This document shows positions 2,159 through 11,431 of a stretch of DNA of 11,431 nucleotides, piece by piece. This DNA comes from a virus: IMG/VR virus record IMGVR_UViG_3300021971_000202. The stretch is one strand, 5' to 3'. The position numbers and the translations under genes are program-made. The notes below the pieces were generated by a model. That model did not search any database and was not told the DNA's origin. It saw only the letters and a list, made by a program, of their open reading frames with translations. How positions within the stretch are numbered: the stretch's first letter is position 1; every line of letters starts with the position of its first letter.

Positions 2159-4276
2159 ATGATTAATGTAAATGAATTTGATTATGATATTGTTAAACGT
2201 GCATTTAATCATGCGAAAACCATTAAGACTAATAAAAAAGTAACTTATTATGAAATTGTGACTTCGTTTGATATTGAAACAACCAGCACCAAGCAAGACG
2301 ATCAAAAGTTTGCTTTTATGTATATTTGGCAATTCGCTTTTGAAGATGTGATTGTGTATGGTCGGACGTGGGAAGAGTATCAACATTTTACAAGTAAGTT
2401 AGTAGAAATTTTACACTTAAATACCAGTAAACGGTTAATAATATATGTTCATAATCTAGGTTATGAATTTCAGTTCATGCGAAAATATTTTGATTGGGCT
2501 AAGGACGGAATTTTTGCCGTTGATACTAGAGAGCCTGTAAAAGCCCTAACCAATAACGGGATCGAATACAAAGATAGTTATATTTTAGCTAGTTTAAACC
2601 TTGATCATGTTGCCAAGAATTTACAGCACCATAAAATTGAAAAATTAGTGGGAAATCTTGATTATACGCAAATTAGAACCTATAAAACGCATTTAACCAA
2701 TGATGAGTTAGCTTATTGCGCAAATGATGTTAAAATTGTGGTAGCTTATATTCACGAACAGATTGATGAATACGGAGATATTACTAAAATACCGTTAACT
2801 AATACTGGTCGAGTGAGACAGTACACTATGCAACAGGTTTATTTTAACGGTCAAAAACAACACCGTAATACGGGCGGACAGTACAAAAAATACCGTAAAT
2901 TAATGGATACGTTAACGCTATCACCAGAGGAATATCAGCAATTGAAACATGCTTTCCAAGGTGGATTCACGCATGCGAATGCCAACAAGCAAGGAAAAAT
3001 GATTGACAATGTGACGAGTTACGATTTTACAAGTTCATACCCGACTGTTATGGTGACCGAACAATTTCCAATGGGAAGAGGTTTCCACCCTAAAATTAAG
3101 TCCCGAAAAGACTTTGATTTTTACCGTGAACATTATTGTATGATTTTTGATATTAAGTTTACGAACCTATTTCCTAAAATTGAACAGGATCATTATTTAT
3201 CAAGTTCAAAATGTGAGTGTTCAAAGGATATGATCGAAGATAATGGGCGGATTTTTTCAGCGTCAACCGTGAAAACCACGATAACGAACATTGATTTTGA
3301 AATTATTGAACGGACGTACACGTGGGACAAGGCACAAGTAAGCAAAGTTCTCGCTTATCGTAAGGAGTTATTACCAAAGAATTTGATTAAAGCGATCATA
3401 CATTTGTACAAAAACAAGACTAAATTAAAAGGCGTTCCGGAACAACGTCCCGAATATATGCGGTCAAAAGGTATGCTAAACTCAATGTATGGAATGAGTG
3501 TCACTAACATTGTTCACGAGGAGAATAACTATATTAAAGATGAGTGGGAACAGGAAGAACCTAATTTAAGCAAAGAAATTATTAAGTATAACCAAAGTAA
3601 GAAACGTTTTCTATTTTACCCGTGGGGTGTTTTTGTTACTGCATATGCTAGACGGAATTTATGGACAGGAATAATCAGTGTAGGTGCTGATTATTGTTAT
3701 TCAGATACGGACAGTATCAAGATTGAGAACGGACAAAATCATTTAAGTTATATTAAAAAGTACAATGAGGTCACCAAAAGCAAGATTAAACAAGTTTGTG
3801 ATAAGTATAATTTAGATGTAAACGATTTTGCCCCGTTTACGATTAAGGGTAAACAAAAACCGATTGGTTACTGGGACAGCGAGGGTGTTTATGATAAATT
3901 TAAAACGTTAGGCGCTAAGCGATATTTAGTTTTTCAAAATAATAAATTGATGTTAACTTGCGCAGGTCTTTCAAAAAGTAAGGGTGTTGATTATTTACTA
4001 AAACAAAGTAATAACAATATTGAAAAAGCATTCAAATTATTTAATGATGAAATGTCGGTACCAGCAGAATATACGGGCAAGTTAACTCACACTTATATTG
4101 ATGATCCCGTAAAGGCGTTAGTAACTGATATTGACGGGAATAAAGTAGAGGTTAACCCCCTATCAAGTATTCATTTAGCACCAACGGAATTTAACCTATC
4201 AATTTCTAAAATGTATAATCAATTCTTATTGGCGTTGATTCATGGTGAACTTTTACTAAAGGACGTGCAAAAATGA
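2159..4276 (+). CDS. Family B DNA polymerase, protein-primed (phi29 gp2-like), 705 aa
   Basis: All hallmark motifs are read in the translation: Exo I SFDIETT, Exo II HNLGYEF, Exo III YCANDVKIV, motif A DFTSSYP (Dx2SLYP), motif B KGMLNSMYG (Kx3NSxYG), TAYARR (Tx2GR-like), motif C YSDTDSI, and KxY as GAKRYL. SD GGGTGGTGA lies upstream. Confidence 0.95.
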   Translation: MINVNEFDYDIVKRAFNHAKTIKTNKKVTYYEIVTSFDIETTSTKQDDQKFAFMYIWQFAFEDVIVYGRTWEEYQHFTSKLVEILHLNTSKRLIIYVHNLGYEFQFMRKYFDWAKDGIFAVDTREPVKALTNNGIEYKDSYILASLNLDHVAKNLQHHKIEKLVGNLDYTQIRTYKTHLTNDELAYCANDVKIVVAYIHEQIDEYGDITKIPLTNTGRVRQYTMQQVYFNGQKQHRNTGGQYKKYRKLMDTLTLSPEEYQQLKHAFQGGFTHANANKQGKMIDNVTSYDFTSSYPTVMVTEQFPMGRGFHPKIKSRKDFDFYREHYCMIFDIKFTNLFPKIEQDHYLSSSKCECSKDMIEDNGRIFSASTVKTTITNIDFEIIERTYTWDKAQVSKVLAYRKELLPKNLIKAIIHLYKNKTKLKGVPEQRPEYMRSKGMLNSMYGMSVTNIVHEENNYIKDEWEQEEPNLSKEIIKYNQSKKRFLFYPWGVFVTAYARRNLWTGIISVGADYCYSDTDSIKIENGQNHLSYIKKYNEVTKSKIKQVCDKYNLDVNDFAPFTIKGKQKPIGYWDSEGVYDKFKTLGAKRYLVFQNNKLMLTCAGLSKSKGVDYLLKQSNNNIEKAFKLFNDEMSVPAEYTGKLTHTYIDDPVKALVTDIDGNKVEVNPLSSIHLAPTEFNLSISKMYNQFLLALIHGELLLKDVQK

Positions 4277-5371: not shown

Positions 5372-5614
5372 ATGGAAGAATTTTTAACGCACGGTTTAAC
5401 ACAGCTTATTTCAGCAGTGGGCTTTCCAATTGTAGTAGCGGTGGCGCTGTATTATCAAAACACAACGCTATCATCTAGTTATCAGAAGATGAACCAGCAG
5501 TTACAAGAAAAGATAGACAATAACACGTTGGTTTTAGCCCGTTTAGTTGAAAGGTTACACCAAGATGTTGTTCTAAACGATCCGACTGAAACCGAAAAGA
5601 GTGATGTTAAATGA
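5372..5614 (+). CDS. Small single-pass membrane protein, YvrJ-like (80 aa); holin candidate
   Basis: The N-terminal LISAVGFPIVVAVALYY matches the GFP-containing hydrophobic helix typical of YvrJ-family proteins (recollection). It is followed by a polar, helical, charged tail. The stop overlaps the portal start (ATGA at 5611-5614). Confidence 0.6.
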   Translation: MEEFLTHGLTQLISAVGFPIVVAVALYYQNTTLSSSYQKMNQQLQEKIDNNTLVLARLVERLHQDVVLNDPTETEKSDVK

Positions 5615-6561
5615 TTAGTTTAACCGATAAGCACGGACTGTTAAAACAGTTCAAGGACGACCAGCTAAACAAGACTTTAACCATGTTCGAATGGTCTAAT
5701 TTACCAGATACCTTACCAGCATTAGAATTAGAAAAAATGTTGCAGATAAATGGGTATGCGATAATTGCCAAGTACCAAGATAATGTTTATGCTTTTCAAG
5801 GTGGTTTTAGCGGTCAAGACGCTTATAATCAACCAACACAAGCGATCGTAAGTAATCCAGCGTTGAAACTTAATAACACATATACGATCAACCAAGATTG
5901 TGTAATTATTAAAAATGACGATATGAAACAAGGATTGATCAAGACTTATGAATACTACGGTCAACGGTTGATTGAAAATGAAATCACCATGCTTATGACC
6001 GACTATAATTTGCGTATGCCGTTTACAATTTCATCAAGTGACGATCAGACTACGCAATCAGCGCAAGACTACCTAAATAAAATTATTGACGGATCACTTG
6101 GGGTTATTGGTGAACAAAAGTTATTTAGTGCTTTAAATGTTACGCCAACCAGTGGCAAGCAAACGTCAAATTTTGCTGATTTATATGGTTACCAGCAATT
6201 TATCACAGCACAACTTAATAACACCATTGGATTGGCAACCAACAACAACATGAAACGGGAACGCTTGACGACTAATGAAATTGAGGTTAACAAAAATGCT
6301 AGTTATCCATTAGTTGATAATATGTTAAAAAATAGACAATTGGCTGCTGAAAAAATCAAGGCAATATTTGGTTTAGATGTTCAAGTTGAATATAGTTCAA
6401 TTTGGGGATCTGATGACGAACAACCAGAACCAGAACCCAAACCAGAACCTAAACCAGAACCTAAACCAGAACCTAAACCAAAACCTAAACCAGAACCTAA
6501 ACCAAAACCTAAACCAGAACCTAAACCAGAAGATAAGAAAAAGGGGCGTGCTAAAAAATGA
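5611..6561 (+). CDS. Portal / upper collar connector protein (phi29 gp10-like), 316 aa
   Basis: [28 protein letters not shown] parallels phi29 gp10 [41 protein letters not shown]...[17 protein letters not shown] parallels KKERMVTDEVSSN...ACEKINELYGLNVKVKF (recollected reference). The length is close to gp10 (309 aa). Confidence 0.9.
   Translation: [316 protein letters not shown]
6424..6531 (+). repeat. Tandem 6/12-nt repeat (AAACCAGAACCT)n encoding 18 consecutive Pro-Glu/Pro-Lys dipeptides
   Basis: CCAGAA/CCTAAA units run uninterrupted from 6424 to 6531. In the portal frame they give [36 protein letters not shown] (aa 272-307), followed by DKKKGRAKK. Confidence 0.95.
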
Positions 6562-7100
6562 TGTATTCCGATTATATTAAAGCCGGTGGCACGGGAATTA
6601 TTACCCTATTATCACAAAATCAAACCTTAAAATATTTATTAAGCGATTCAATTCAACCGTTAGATACCACTTTTTTAATGGAAAACGGTAATAAAAATTT
6701 TTCACTTGCAATCGAAAGCATGTTAAATTCTGAAAATGATTTAACACCAATTGCTAGTATGCTAAAAGTTCGCTTTGGTCAATATTGGCAAGTGCTTTAT
6801 AATTCACAACCAGCGGATAGTGATACCATTAATAGTTCAATTACAACCACCAATGGAGAAATCAACACCACAGGCAACACTGTGGGGCAAGTGAGTGGGT
6901 ATGATAGCCCGACAATGGTGGATAATGATGGTAGTAATTCAACGGGTAATCAAACGAATAACAACACGGTTAAAACATTGAAATATGAAGATCTAACAAA
7001 ATTATTAGGTGAATTGAAAAATAATGTTTTTTATGATAAAATGTTCATAGATATTAGAAATTACATTTTTAACACTGTTTACGGAAATGAAAGGGAGTAA
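6558..7100 (+). CDS. Hypothetical virion or assembly protein (180 aa); lower-collar/adaptor or scaffold candidate
   Basis: ATGA overlap with the portal stop. It lies between the portal and major capsid genes. A central Asn/Thr/Ser/Gly-rich low-complexity region (about aa 85-137) is flanked by ordered-looking ends. I recognise no motif. Confidence 0.65.
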   Translation: MMYSDYIKAGGTGIITLLSQNQTLKYLLSDSIQPLDTTFLMENGNKNFSLAIESMLNSENDLTPIASMLKVRFGQYWQVLYNSQPADSDTINSSITTTNGEINTTGNTVGQVSGYDSPTMVDNDGSNSTGNQTNNNTVKTLKYEDLTKLLGELKNNVFYDKMFIDIRNYIFNTVYGNERE

Positions 7101-7104
7101 TATT

Positions 7105-8271
7105 TTGAAAGTAACTCAATTAAAAGATATTCTAGGAACAGTTACAAATGAGGTTTTAGGTAAAGATGGTGTTTTAGCAGAAGATCTTTCAAACCTTGTT
7201 GATGTTGGTAATCAGATTGTTGATACCGAAAACATTGATAACTATGTAAAAAAGCTGATTGACCGAATTGGTAAAGTTGTCTTTGTGAACCGGTTGTATG
7301 CTGGGGGTGTTCCCAGCGTATTAATGGATAGCTGGGAATTTGGTTCAATTGTTGAAAAGATTAGCGCTGATATGCCCGACGCTGATACCAACGATAGTTG
7401 GAACTTACAAGACGGACAATCATATTCACAAGATACTTTTTACCAGCCTAAAGTTTCCGCTAAGTTTTTCAACTCACAAGTTACTTTTGATGTTAAGTTG
7501 TCGTTTACGTCAAAACAAGTTAAAGAAAGTTTTACCAGTGTAAATGACTTAAACGCATTCTTATCCATGCTTGAAACTGGTGTTGAAAACTCAATGACTG
7601 TTAAACTTGACGGATTGATTATGCGTACGATTAATAACATGACTGCACAAATTCTTAACGGTGGGCAAGCAATGCAAAAAGTCAACTTGCTATCACAATA
7701 CAATTCAATTAGTGGATCAACCTTAACTGCTAATAAAGCTTTACTTGATAAGGAATTTTTGAAATATGCTAGTTTGGTTATTAAGCAATATCAGGCACGG
7801 GTTACAACTATGTCAACTTTATTCAACCAAGGTGCAAAAGCACGGTTCACAAACACAACTGACTTGCATACAGTGTTACTTTCTGATTTTGCGGATAATG
7901 CGGAAGTTTACTTGATGAGTGACACCACCCACAACGATATGGTTTCACTACCACAGCATGAAACCGTACCATATTGGCAAGGTAGCGGAACAGCATACGG
8001 ATTTAATGATGTTTCAACGATTGACGCAAAGATTAACGGTTCTAATAAGACACCTAAGGAAATCAAACAAAGCGGTATTTTAGGGGTTATGTTTGATACA
8101 AATGCCCTTGGTGTTTCTAACCTTGACCAACGAACAACCACCGCTTACAATGCACGGGCTGAATTTTACACTAACTTTTATAAACTTGACGCTGGTTTCT
8201 TTAATGATTTAGATGAAAACTTTGTCGTATTTTACATTGCAGACGCTGTTACCCCAGCCCCAGCGGCTTAA
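7105..8271 (+). CDS. Major capsid protein (phi29 gp8-like), 388 aa from TTG 7105 (394 aa if ATG 7087)
   Basis: KKLIDRIGKVVFVNR parallels phi29 gp8 SLVDRIGLVVIRQ, and the N-terminus (M)KVTQLKDILG parallels MRITFNDVKTSLG (recollected). TTG 7105 lies 7 nt after AAAGGGAG (7090-7097) and just after the upstream TAA (7098-7100). ATG 7087 has no SD. A strong terminator follows the gene. Confidence 0.85.
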   Translation: MKVTQLKDILGTVTNEVLGKDGVLAEDLSNLVDVGNQIVDTENIDNYVKKLIDRIGKVVFVNRLYAGGVPSVLMDSWEFGSIVEKISADMPDADTNDSWNLQDGQSYSQDTFYQPKVSAKFFNSQVTFDVKLSFTSKQVKESFTSVNDLNAFLSMLETGVENSMTVKLDGLIMRTINNMTAQILNGGQAMQKVNLLSQYNSISGSTLTANKALLDKEFLKYASLVIKQYQARVTTMSTLFNQGAKARFTNTTDLHTVLLSDFADNAEVYLMSDTTHNDMVSLPQHETVPYWQGSGTAYGFNDVSTIDAKINGSNKTPKEIKQSGILGVMFDTNALGVSNLDQRTTTAYNARAEFYTNFYKLDAGFFNDLDENFVVFYIADAVTPAPAA

Positions 8272-8292: not shown

Positions 8293-8316
8293 GACGGGTA
8301 TAAACCCGTCTTTTTT
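8293..8316 (+). terminator. Strong rho-independent terminator after the major capsid gene
   Basis: Perfect 7-bp GC-rich stem: GACGGGT (8293-8299), loop ATAA, ACCCGTC (8304-8310), followed by TTTTTT (8311-8316). An upstream A-run (8289-8291) could extend the pairing. Confidence 0.85.
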
Positions 8317-8332
8317 AATACGAGGTGTTAAA

Positions 8333-8758
8333 ATGAACGTAAACTTTTATGATAATCAATCAAATGAAAATGTAATCAACAAGACGATAAATTTAATTAC
8401 CAGTAAAAACATTATATTCAGAAGCACGATCAACGAAAAGAACCCAGTATTATTGCTTCATAATGATTTATTGAACGAAATTAATTATGTCGAAATCCAG
8501 ACCTTTAAAAGGTATTATTATATTGAACATATTGAACCATTCAACAATCAATTATCGAGGATTTTTCTCACCACTGATTTATTAATGACGTATCAAAATG
8601 AAATTCTAAATAATGAAGTATTAGTTACCGCAACGGAACAGCCCAGTTATTCAGCAAACAGTTTACCAACTACCCGTAAAATAATTAGTGACAAGTATGT
8701 GGGTAACGTTACGTTGCCTACCGGAACAACCAAAGTATTAACAACCATAGGGGGTTAA
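8333..8758 (+). CDS. Tail protein resembling the N-terminal domain of the phi29 gp9 tail knob (141 aa)
   Basis: ATG at 8333 lies 5 nt after GAGGTG (8322-8327), downstream of the terminator. The ORF-track start at 8213 would run through the capsid gene end and the terminator. NYVEIQTFKRYYYIEHIEPFNNQLSRIFLTTDLLMTY parallels gp9 [42 protein letters not shown] (recollected). Confidence 0.6.
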   Translation: MNVNFYDNQSNENVINKTINLITSKNIIFRSTINEKNPVLLLHNDLLNEINYVEIQTFKRYYYIEHIEPFNNQLSRIFLTTDLLMTYQNEILNNEVLVTATEQPSYSANSLPTTRKIISDKYVGNVTLPTGTTKVLTTIGG

Positions 8759-8761
8759 AAC

Positions 8762-10531
8762 ATGTCTACAACATTAAGTAGTAAAATTATAGGTGTTCAA
8801 TTATATGCGTATGATATAGCAAGACGACCCGACAAAACACTAGATTCCAAGGGATACCCACAATTACTAAGTTATACAAAAGATAATGAACAAGATGATG
8901 CGGTTTCACCTGTAACACAAAACCCTACGGAAAACCTTACACAGGCAATAAACCAAATTATGTTTGTTTCTAATGTTGTCAAGAGTTTTAATGATCAGAA
9001 AATAAACGTTCACGGAATTAAATTTGGTCCCGGTGATAATGTAGATATAGCACTATCAATGATTAATAATAGTAGTAACGTAATATATTCTAATGTGATC
9101 TTATATGGTGATGATGTCTATATACAACCCGAACCAAATACAACCGCTACAACAACCAATAAAAAAACACCTTTTTCAACTAGTACGCCCGGAATTAACA
9201 TAAAATATCAAACGGGTATTGTACCAAACAACCGGGGTCATGCCAATGTTATTTTTGAAGTAACAACGGGTTACAAAATTCCAGTTGGTGCTACCATTAA
9301 AGCAAACCCCACTATTCAAGATTCGTTTGGTAAATTAAAACCCGGTACGCCAAAAACCTATCAGGTAGTGTATGAAATTCAACCCGGAGTCTATTCCTTT
9401 ACTATAAAATCAGACAGTAGTACCGAATGGAAAGAATGCGATATTGATTTTTCTACCGTACCAACAACGACAACACCGCCAGAAACACCACCAACAACAA
9501 TTCCGCTGGTTCAAAAGTTAGATCATGTTAAGAGTAATATAACCGGTGATTCAATTGATAGAAAACTTAATGCAATTAGTTTAACCGCTGATCCCGGTTA
9601 TATGTTTAAAACCAACATTGAAATTTTGTTATATTCAGGGGGTAAAATAGTTTATGACAATGCTGTTGCCGGTAATAATTCGGATAGTATCACGATCCCT
9701 TTGAATACCACCAATGAAAACACAATTACCGATAACATTGACAATATACAACTAACAGCTAGTGCTACCCTTGGAACAGTATCAACTAGTTACGAACATA
9801 ATTATTTAATCACAGATACAGAATTAAACGCCCTATCTAATGAAAAAATATGGACGTTTGTTAATGGTGAACCCGGTTTAGATAGTTACAATACTAATTA
9901 TTTTATTAATAACTTAATTCAATTACCATTTAATGTTGATACTGAAAATCATATGCAACCTATATCATTAGGGGAGGTGAAAGCTCAAACTGCCGCATAT
10001 GAAGCAAAAGAAAGGTTTGTAAACCTTGATTTAGGTAATATCAAAGTACCAGCAAAATATCATAATGGTTATGATTATCAAAATAAGACGATTAAGCTTT
10101 ATACGCCTTTTGTTCCACCAATTTCCATTGATAATACCAATGCAATTGATAAAACGATCCGAATTAGTTACAAAGTTGATATTTCAAACGGTAACTTAAC
10201 CGTCAACCTATATAATGATGATATTTTATTCTTTACAGGTATCAACAGAATTGATAGTCAAATACCTTTCCTAAACATGTTAAAAAATACGATCATTAAC
10301 CGTGATACACATTTCACCGATAACGATATTAGACAACCATATATCATTGTTTCACGTGAAACACCGATCCTAAATAGTGATTATTACCCGACTAGTGAAC
10401 GTGGTTTAATAAAGAGTTATAATGGTAATGTTCAAGTACGTTTATTAAATAATATGAACATACCGAACAATGAATTATCTGAACTAACAAGTCAACTAGA
10501 AAGTGGTGTTAAATTTGTTAAAAGTAATTGA
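8762..10531 (+). CDS. Tail knob / receptor-binding tail protein (589 aa), gp9-like C-terminal part with an inserted linker-flanked module
   Basis: SD AGGGGGT (8749-8755) lies 6 nt before ATG 8762. Thr/Pro linkers (PNTTATTTNKKTPFSTSTPG and STVPTTTTPPETPPTTIP) flank a beta-rich module. The C-terminal third (IKLYTPFVPPISID...ISYKVDISNGNLTV, and the end NIPNNELSELTSQLESGVKFV) parallels gp9 (MMYPYCVTEITD..., DINNNDLQEIRTIFDNGITLW), from recollection. Confidence 0.6.
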   Translation: MSTTLSSKIIGVQLYAYDIARRPDKTLDSKGYPQLLSYTKDNEQDDAVSPVTQNPTENLTQAINQIMFVSNVVKSFNDQKINVHGIKFGPGDNVDIALSMINNSSNVIYSNVILYGDDVYIQPEPNTTATTTNKKTPFSTSTPGINIKYQTGIVPNNRGHANVIFEVTTGYKIPVGATIKANPTIQDSFGKLKPGTPKTYQVVYEIQPGVYSFTIKSDSSTEWKECDIDFSTVPTTTTPPETPPTTIPLVQKLDHVKSNITGDSIDRKLNAISLTADPGYMFKTNIEILLYSGGKIVYDNAVAGNNSDSITIPLNTTNENTITDNIDNIQLTASATLGTVSTSYEHNYLITDTELNALSNEKIWTFVNGEPGLDSYNTNYFINNLIQLPFNVDTENHMQPISLGEVKAQTAAYEAKERFVNLDLGNIKVPAKYHNGYDYQNKTIKLYTPFVPPISIDNTNAIDKTIRISYKVDISNGNLTVNLYNDDILFFTGINRIDSQIPFLNMLKNTIINRDTHFTDNDIRQPYIIVSRETPILNSDYYPTSERGLIKSYNGNVQVRLLNNMNIPNNELSELTSQLESGVKFVKSN

Positions 10532-11327
10532 TGTTTCAAGTAACCAAGGATTTATCAAGATTGCCCCGATTGATTGTGACGCAGTTATCACGAAAGCAAC
10601 AGGCGGAAATAGTTATGTAAACCATTGTTGTGATTATGTTATTCAACAATGTATCAAACTCAATAAACCATTTGGTTTCTACCACTATGCACACGAATAT
10701 GGAAAATTTAATTTACCAGAAAAAGAAGCAGATTTCTTTATCAAGAATACAAAGAACTACTTTAAACGTGGATTGGTTGTCCTTGATTATGAAGTCCCTA
10801 TCAATGGACGCAACTATACTAAAACTGATATTAATTGGATTGAACAATTTATTGAGTATGTTCACCAGAAAACAGGTGTGTATTGCCTACTATATATTAG
10901 TAAGTCATTGTTATACGGTACTGGTGATTGGTCTAGGGTTGCCAAGATTTCCGGGTTATGGTTTGCCCAGTATGCTGATAATAACCGCACAGGCTGGACT
11001 AAAACACCGTGGTCTGATCATAAGCCTACCTCACCATTTAACGTTGTAATGGATCAGTACACAAGTACCGGACGGATTCACGGTTATAATGGTAATTTAG
11101 ACTTATCCATATTCTATGGTGATAAAAATACATGGAATGCGTATGCCAATCCAAGCAAACAAATTATTCATAAACCTACCGAAAAAACTAAGGAAGTGAA
11201 ACATATGGATTATTTAACTGAATTTGCAAAAGATGTTATCAAAGGAAAATACGGTAATGGTCAACATAGAAAAGAAAATATTTATAATGCAGTTCAAAAG
11301 AAAGTTGAACAATTACTAAAAAAATAA
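10503..11327 (+). CDS. Endolysin: GH25 muramidase domain plus a single C-terminal CW_7-like (Cpl-7 type) motif
   Basis: GH25 signatures: VIDVSSNQG, AVITKATGG, the LDYE (D-x-E) catalytic pair, and MDQYTSTGRIHGYNGNLDLSIFYG. The C-terminal FAKDVIKGKYGNGQHRKENIYNAVQKKVEQLL resembles the CW_7 repeat (recollected). No in-frame ATG precedes the catalytic motif. The frame opens after TAG 10497-10499, so the start must be GTG 10503, GTG 10506 or TTG 10515. Confidence 0.9.
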   Translation: MVLNLLKVIDVSSNQGFIKIAPIDCDAVITKATGGNSYVNHCCDYVIQQCIKLNKPFGFYHYAHEYGKFNLPEKEADFFIKNTKNYFKRGLVVLDYEVPINGRNYTKTDINWIEQFIEYVHQKTGVYCLLYISKSLLYGTGDWSRVAKISGLWFAQYADNNRTGWTKTPWSDHKPTSPFNVVMDQYTSTGRIHGYNGNLDLSIFYGDKNTWNAYANPSKQIIHKPTEKTKEVKHMDYLTEFAKDVIKGKYGNGQHRKENIYNAVQKKVEQLLKK

Positions 11328-11364: not shown

Positions 11365-11431
11365 TAAAGTTAGGTGTGCCTAAAAATTAAGTTTTGGGTA
11401 TGCCTAACTTTTTAATAGGGAGGGGATAATT
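11365..11431. repeat. Right inverted terminal repeat (ITR-R)
   Basis: Exact reverse complement of 1-67. On the + strand its internal palindrome (AAAGTTAGG 11366-11374 with CCTAACTTT 11403-11411, then TT) could also act as a transcript-end hairpin for the rightward operon. Confidence 0.95.

Follow-up and report, generated by a model that had tools for sequence, protein, structure and literature searches.

In phi29 (gp9; 5FB4, 5FB5), and likewise in Streptococcus phage C1 (gp12; 4EO2) and Staphylococcus phage Andhra (8EGS), the tail knob is a single polypeptide of ~580–600 amino acids (aa), encoded after the capsid gene, which possesses an N-domain and a C-terminal end motif but no array of immunoglobulin (Ig)-like domains, while receptor binding is left to separate appendages (PMC11476376). 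A knob made of two proteins has been published for the phages Astrid (gp09 and gp10), DU_PP_III and Phanie (gp9 and gp10) (PMC11476376), that of Phanie having been described by Pourcel et al., 2024 (J Virol), as cited in the same review. In these phages, one protein resembles the N-terminal part of phi29 p9, and the other is formed by the C-terminal part together with Ig-like domains, which vary in number; the same article includes AlphaFold3 (AF3) models of 6+6 complexes, reports HHpred results linking the C-part of the orthologues to gp9, and proposes phi29-like phages of Gram-negative hosts as the origin of the split (PMC11476376). Here we consider two adjacent open reading frames (ORFs), A and B, on the plus strand of the virus record IMGVR_UViG_3300021971_000202 (IMG/VR), a stretch of 11,431 nucleotides (nt) hereafter called the window, which in all probability are two separate genes encoding an anciently conserved two-piece version of the phi29-type gene 9 knob. 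Their parts are the following:

8333..8758, plus strand: ORF A, 141 aa, proposed minor (proximal) tail-knob subunit (PDB profile, Foldseek, hhalign, PHROG)
8749..8755, plus strand: Shine-Dalgarno (SD) sequence AGGGGGT for ORF B, inside the conserved Ile-Gly-Gly codons that end ORF A
8756..8761, plus strand: TAA stop of ORF A and spacer codon AAC, with the same sequence in assemblies L029 and L030
8762..10531, plus strand: ORF B, 589 aa
8762..9781, plus strand: ORF B residues 1–340, Ig/FN3-like beta-sandwich array, putative receptor-binding part (AlphaFold2 (AF2), Foldseek, variability)
9794..10531, plus strand: ORF B residues 345–589 and stop codon, proposed major (distal) knob part (homology to the C-terminal two-thirds of unsplit knobs)
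10265..10327, plus strand: ORF B residues 502–522, short polar loop (AF2 predicted local distance difference test (pLDDT) <50; faces the gap opposite the loop of unsplit knobs)

The nearest named relatives of the window are the 11–12 kb astrithr-like phages, i.e. Salmonella phages astrithr, Astrid and assan, Enterobacter phage Entb_47, Acinetobacter phage Phanie, Pectobacterium phage DU_PP_III and Vibrio phage K58 g2. The window shares with them a linear genome of 11–12 kb with the same gene order, a gene of ~145 aa placed after the capsid gene with a large gene directly behind it, and the same distribution of domains, the small protein corresponding to the gp9 N-domain and the large one being composed of Ig-like domains and of a C-terminal stretch of ~240 aa taken as the counterpart of the gp9 C-part. 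In the records of astrithr, Entb_47 and Phanie, for example, the capsid gene is followed by a small gene of 438–444 nt and then at once by a large gene of 1707–2565 nt, and the small gene of Phanie is annotated as "putative tail knob protein". By tblastn, ORF A matched Entb_47 (E 1e-10) and astrithr (E 1e-7), as well as DU_PP_III and Phanie, and the C-part of ORF B matched DU_PP_III (E 7e-8), Phanie (E 1e-5) and Entb_47. The window differs from the isolates in that the identity is only 23–31% in A and 19–20% in B, the GC content is 34%, and the number and type of the N-terminal B domains are not the same; moreover, its lysin is of the GH25+CW_7 type, whereas in the isolates from Gram-negative hosts the lysins are small and no wall-binding domain is recognised in them. 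The traits of the group, namely a phi29-like genome of ~11–14 kb, a gp16 ATPase, a connector and a capsid protein (Pfam/PHROG) and terminal repeats, are all found in the window. Since the architecture has already been published for Astrid, DU_PP_III and Phanie, the split as such is already described and the window is an added member, ordinary for its phage group; its metagenomic clade is itself not previously described.

ORF A is the N-terminal, tail-tube-like domain of a phi29-type knob, an assignment on which profile search of the PDB, structural comparison and alignment with the gp9 family agree. The profile of alignment A2, which contains A and its distant homologues, retrieved from the PDB the gp12 protein of phage C1 (4EO2, residues 68–147, E 2.6e-4) and the Andhra knob (8EGS_Y, E 0.016). 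The best PDB matches found by Foldseek with the model of A are the knobs of C1 (4EO2), phi29 (gp9; 5FB4, 5FB5, 5FEI) and Andhra (8EGS_Y), with a probability of 0.95–0.98 for phi29 gp9 and Andhra and of 0.60 for C1 gp12, and the lambda neck and stopper proteins come next in the list. Finally, hhalign of A2 against a 9-member alignment of the gp9 family (E 4.5e-5) places A 25–103 on phi29 gp9 49–133. A preliminary description of this DNA, made by inspection of its letters, had noticed a resemblance of A to the gp9 N-domain, and these three results bear it out. Matches to PHROG families were weak only (for ORF A, PHROG 2248, "tail protein"), Pfam returned no family for either ORF A or ORF B, and the single-sequence PDB searches with A and B gave only noise, save for a weak match of A to 8egs_Y (E 7.4).

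The model of ORF B obtained with AF2 has a mean pLDDT of 81, with values of ~95 for residues 1–235 and ~85 for residues 245–335, and contains in its N-terminal part beta-sandwich domains joined by a TTPPETPPTT linker. When the whole-B model was compared with BFVD by Foldseek, the top matches were a protein of Astrid (E 7e-22) and uncharacterised Podoviridae proteins, likely orthologues, followed at lower ranks by generic tail proteins of the Ig/FN3 type. Among the relatives, the length of B ranges from 338 to 1027 aa, and it is the C-terminal ~240 aa that are conserved, including in all the distant relatives. The relationship of this C-terminal part to tail knobs emerges from the comparison with unsplit knobs (L027, L028 and L031–L036, including that of Amedibacillus phage AD70P3, a member of the Guelinviridae). 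The closest single-chain relatives are the unsplit "mini-knobs" of 439–517 aa (e.g. AD70P3 WAX05408.1 and those of the uncultured "Bacteriophage sp." MT836115 and MT836263), which belong to small Guelinviridae-like phages from gut and sewage and are encoded right after the capsid gene; they are continuous, with ~15–20 residues in place of the stop, the start and the 340 additional aa of the split phages. By hhalign, A 1–131 aligns with residues 2–136 of the unsplit knobs (99.9%, E 3.7e-31) and B 372–586 with residues 199–478 (98.1%, E 7.4e-14), reaching the C-terminal end and, with a permissive setting, extending upstream to about B 340. The unsplit knobs are in turn related to the gp9 family through the N-domain (94.4%, E 8.6e-8) and through the C-terminal end, which aligns with the gp9 C-terminal end (E 0.0012), whereas their profile (A5) gave no match in the PDB. 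Since the two ORFs collinearly cover the unsplit proteins, ORF A and residues 345–589 of ORF B are together the equivalent of one unsplit knob protein, and residues 1–340 of ORF B have no counterpart in it.

The C-terminal third of ORF B had been proposed to be the rest of gp9, including its C-terminal end. This is borne out only indirectly, with the unsplit knobs as a bridge: when B is compared by hhalign with phi29 gp9, alone or as a family, no more than the last 30–70 residues are aligned, at E values of 0.002–0.016 for the better alignments (B 556–586 on gp9 553–584, the place expected, with E 0.15, 0.016 and 0.002 in the different alignments), and by pooling B with the C-parts of the unsplit knobs the hhalign match to gp9 became no longer than the C-terminal motif. 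This short direct alignment is one of the observations that weigh against the two-gene knob reading. Others are that the B profile has no match in the PDB; that Foldseek with the whole-B model finds no knob in the PDB, where only Ig, FN3 and complement-macroglobulin (MG) arrays are matched; and that the AF2 model of A is poor, with a mean pLDDT of 53 (~75 for residues 20–88) and a Foldseek E value of ~0.1. To these it must be added that a knob built with ORF B would be predicted to be one that cannot work exactly as in phi29, because ORF B is without the membrane-penetrating Gly/Ala-rich loop.

In phi29 gp9, we take this pore-forming loop to be residues 429–481; it is reportedly the subject of work by Xu and colleagues of 2016 (reference 49 of PMC11476376). 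A long, uncharged loop rich in Gly, Ala and Ser occurs in all the gp9-family members and mini-knobs examined, the knobs of phi29, C1 and Andhra being among those that carry it, and in 0 of 21 split-type B proteins. In numerical terms, the maximum G+A+S fraction over 40 aa is 0.40–0.62 in the gp9 family and 0.38–0.57 in the unsplit mini-knobs, as opposed to 0.23–0.35 in the 21 split-type B proteins. The loop of the unsplit knobs aligns with a gap in B, and only the short polar loop at residues 502–522 is present there (hhalign, AF2). The loss of the loop in split knobs is not mentioned in the review (PMC11476376). Since every split knob examined is without the gp9 loop, how the DNA crosses the membrane becomes a question that can be tested.

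An argument for two genuine genes is the conservation of the split. Junctions between A and B were read as sequence at 21 loci (phage records, IMG/VR, metagenomes), and 4 further close lineages were added through the coordinates of called genes in Logan and ENA assemblies; in all of the resulting 25 related lineages the gene is split, always after a conserved C-terminal motif ..T-I/V-G-G. We found 224 homologues of ORF A, nearly all of exactly 141 aa, and an exhaustive HMMER search with A yielded 3086 representative clusters (50% identity) at E<=1e-3; in the best 150 of the 3086, the protein is almost always stand-alone, 138–159 aa long and aligned end to end. A scan of viral contigs gave no match with the A sequence alone and 3 loci only with the A alignment, and a homologue search with the B alignment, limited by its candidate cap, contributed hardly any distant members. 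The exact ORF B protein is found on 8 contigs, and L029 and L030, which derive from other samples (JGI 3300023205, ENA ERZ17990359), have an identical 36-nt junction and 1–2 differences from the window elsewhere. The arrangement of stop and start at the junction varies as follows:

8-nt overlap: L020
ATGA overlap: L007 (82% identical to A), L049
TAATG: Phanie
TAAATG: astrithr
Gap of 1 nt: Entb_47, L051
Gap of 2 nt: L012–L014, L053
Gap of 3 nt: window, L004, L008, L011
Gap of 4 nt: L010, L054
TAA TAG ATG, in-frame tandem stop: L005

With respect to A, B is in frame 0 in 6 lineages out of 25 and in frame +1 or +2 in the other 19, the chance expectation being 1/3; among the lineages with 68–82% identity in A, 3 of 9 are in frame, and in the rest there is an ATGA overlap or a gap of 1, 2 or 4 nt. 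As the share of in-frame junctions corresponds to chance both overall and among the near relatives, the common frame of A and B in the window is a coincidence of the 3-nt spacer and has no function. A frameshift fusion in the out-of-frame relatives was also considered and rejected, as no slippery motif is common to the junctions and their spacing varies between an overlap of 8 nt and a gap of 4 nt.

In the window itself, ORF A runs from the ATG at 8333 through 141 codons to the TAA at 8756–8758, which is followed by AAC (8759–8761) and then by the ATG at 8762, from which the 589 codons of ORF B proceed to the end at 10531. On direct reading of the sequence, the claims of the preliminary description that A and B share one frame, separated by TAA and one codon, and that ORF B has its own SD overlapping the final Gly-Gly codons of A are both correct; the AGGGGGT motif lies within the last Ile-Gly-Gly codons, 6 nt 5' of the ORF B ATG, and GGGGG, GGAGG, GGTGG or a near variant occupies the equivalent site in 21 of the 21 junctions read as sequence. 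An SD-like run of G inside the Gly-Gly codons, together with the very short spacing between the ORFs, indicates that translation of A and B may be coupled. As to the start of ORF A, the mechanically called ORF begins at the ATG at 8213 (181 aa), but the true start is the one at 8333, because more than 200 homologues share the same first Met, at 141 aa, because GAGGTG is placed 5 nt upstream and because a hairpin followed by T6 stands between the capsid gene and A. The two signals are:

8293..8316, plus strand: intrinsic-terminator-like hairpin GACGGGT ATAA ACCCGTC, then T6, lying 3' of the capsid gene and 5' of ORF A (direct reading)
8322..8327, plus strand: SD-like GAGGTG for ORF A, 5 nt before its ATG (direct reading)

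The hairpin scan listed this element (8293–8310) for the minus strand only, and the T6 tail on the plus strand is a manual reading. Its position, directly 3' of the capsid gene and 5' of the knob genes, is of interest for transcription, and suggests an attenuation by which the tail genes might be transcribed at a level below that of the capsid gene.

Besides a genuine two-piece knob, the in-frame arrangement had led the preliminary description to envisage two further readings, neither of which stands up to the comparison with relatives. In one of them, programmed read-through of the TAA would yield a minor 732-aa A-B fusion that acts in tail assembly beside the separate A and B proteins. In its favor, only TAA and one sense codon lie between two ORFs in one frame, and 5 other lineages are likewise in frame; yet the frame relation is not conserved, its frequency being that of chance, the in-frame relative L005 carries a tandem TAA TAG, the stop is TAA in nearly all the relatives, the ATG of ORF B is only 3 nt past the stop, and no stable RNA structure is seen around or after it (for the fold of 8720–8820, z = –0.7 versus shuffles). 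TAA is generally the least leaky stop codon in bacteria, and we regard read-through as very improbable. Equally, a pair of in-frame ORFs with a single stop between them is the trace that a point mutation is expected to leave, and the window taken in isolation could be explained by a single gene that recently acquired a nonsense mutation or was broken by a mistake in assembly or sequencing. This explanation is refuted in view of the same junction being found in independent assemblies from other samples, of the hundreds of stand-alone A homologues of ~141 aa that stop at the same residue, of the SD and ATG that precede B in every relative, and of the 340 aa of extra domains interposed between the two knob-homologous parts, which are not contiguous gp9 sequence. 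The genuine two-piece knob was the other of the three readings put forward at the time with no choice made among them, and it is this one that agrees with the data, the gene being split in all the relatives found and both pieces being collinear with unsplit knobs.

Two more alternatives accept the two genes but interpret them differently. The polarity could be reversed, the two-gene state being ancestral and the single-chain knobs (phi29 gp9 and those of Guelinviridae-like phages) having arisen by gene fusion. In favor of this possibility, A as a stand-alone protein constitutes a very large, diverse family (3086 clusters), the A-like domain behaves as a mobile module in that it is found joined to other modules (Kelch, in P0246 and P0323), and its fold is like that of stand-alone neck and tail-tube proteins according to the review (PMC11476376), in line with the lambda neck and stopper proteins that Foldseek lists for A. 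Against it, single-chain knobs are spread across Salasmaviridae, Guelinviridae, many unclassified lineages, C1 and Andhra, whereas the split form has so far been seen in the astrithr-like group and its metagenomic relatives, and the review treats the astrithr-like group as derived (PMC11476376, section 3); on balance a fusion origin is unlikely. The second alternative concerns function: the split, the Ig-like array and the loss of the loop might together mark phages that hitch-hike on the tail of a helper and do not deliver their DNA via their own knob. This idea is prompted by the missing loop, by the scan of the ORFs having revealed no fibre gene, and by one published case, Phanie, the virions of which reportedly depend on a helper myophage for a contractile tail (Pourcel et al., 2024, as cited in PMC11476376). 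We consider it decidedly unlikely. Were it true, the N-terminal domains of B would dock to the tail of the helper phage and not to the host, and the very large metagenomic family, including clades with lysins like those of phages of Gram-positive hosts, would consist of helper-dependent, satellite-like phages.

According to the two-gene knob model that we prefer, six A subunits would form a proximal ring under the collar and six B C-parts the distal tube and tip, whereas the N-terminal Ig-like arrays of B would project sideways as binding modules for the receptor or, with lower probability, for a helper phage's tail. Coupled translation would provide A and B in matched amounts for a 6+6 assembly, as can be presumed because the ribosome-binding site of B is inside A and the start of B is within a few bases of the A stop. 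In evolutionary terms, the boundary following the conserved Gly-containing strand may have been opened by the insertion of a start signal and of an Ig-like module. Of the ORFs of the window that were scanned with Pfam and PHROG, none was recognised as an appendage or fibre gene; the Ig/FN3-like domains of ORF B are therefore probably the only receptor-binding structure of this phage, as opposed to the separate appendages of phi29, C1 and Andhra. For annotation purposes, ORF A should be entered as a minor and ORF B as a major tail-knob protein, each as a gene of its own, and the pair should be neither merged nor labelled as a pseudogene or a recoding site. More generally, the two-gene knob extends over a very large metagenomic radiation (thousands of clusters of the small subunit at 50% identity), well beyond the few isolates from Gram-negative hosts.

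Two observations concern the modules attached to either subunit. Among the close relatives of the window (P0130–P0187), two types of B are found, of 584–606 and 661–676 aa, which have a common C-terminal region of ~350 aa, at about 65% identity, and different N-terminal modules; an exchange of N-terminal modules of this kind is typical of receptor-binding proteins. In P0246 and P0323 (594 and 606 aa), an A-like domain is placed at the C-terminal end, after Kelch beta-propeller repeats, and in contig L026 (1383–3974) it is near the end of an 863-aa ORF, the next gene being the packaging ATPase and not B. Because the A-like domain occurs at the ends of these larger proteins, it may be the small subunit that bears the binding module in some phages.

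Turning to the genome as a whole, the window has perfect terminal inverted repeats of 67 bp (1–67 and 11365–11431) and a GC content of 33.9%, and because of these repeats it is regarded as the complete linear 11.4-kb genome of a tiny phi29-like podovirus of the protein-primed type. The gene order is a 705-aa protein, a gp16-type packaging ATPase, a small transmembrane protein, a phi29-type connector, a 180-aa protein, the capsid, A, B and the endolysin; the 705-aa protein (2159–4276) is read as a family B polymerase purely on the basis of its motifs. The genes that flank the knob are:

7087..8271, plus strand: phi29-like major capsid protein (Pfam PF25622, E 4e-52), upstream of ORF A
10503..11327, plus strand: endolysin, GH25 muramidase with CW_7 wall-binding repeat (Pfam), overlapping the end of ORF B

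The endolysin is relevant to the hosts in which split knobs are used. The lysin of the window matches 90 phage records, and 90 of 90 are phages of Gram-positive hosts; without being proof, this points away from a Gram-negative host. Other split-knob contigs (24–31% GC) encode lysins of the Amidase_2+SPOR, M15+CW_7 and GH25+CW_7 types, at the following positions:

L004: 5393–6067
L013: 4703–5302
L020: 3916–4644
L022: 2782–3570

The presence of endolysins with wall-binding domains in some split-knob clades weakens the published proposal of an adaptation to Gram-negative hosts as the reason for the split. A near-full-length relative, L046 (JAUMUB010000028.1, 11425 bp), is deposited within a Bifidobacteriaceae metagenome-assembled genome; this is probably a binning artefact and is not evidence of the host, although it may serve as a lead to it.

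Among the remaining genes, the connector gene is separated from the capsid gene by a 180-aa ORF (6558–7100), which is conserved in all the relatives; its equivalent is named shortened lower collar in the literature, and no signal for such an identity (gp11) was obtained by PDB profile search or by hhalign against phi29 gp11. Two small membrane proteins are predicted, one of 80 aa with one hydrophobic segment (5372–5614) and one of 99 aa with two (450–749), and for both a function as holin or as membrane-active ejection protein is conceivable; a small ORF between the ATPase and the connector, like that at 5372–5614, is present in astrithr, Entb_47 and Phanie as well. Lastly, the connector ends (residues ~269–316, window 6415–6558) with a low-complexity tail of PEPK/PKPK repeats followed by KKKGRAKK, and its length among close relatives goes from 316 aa to more than 420 aa.

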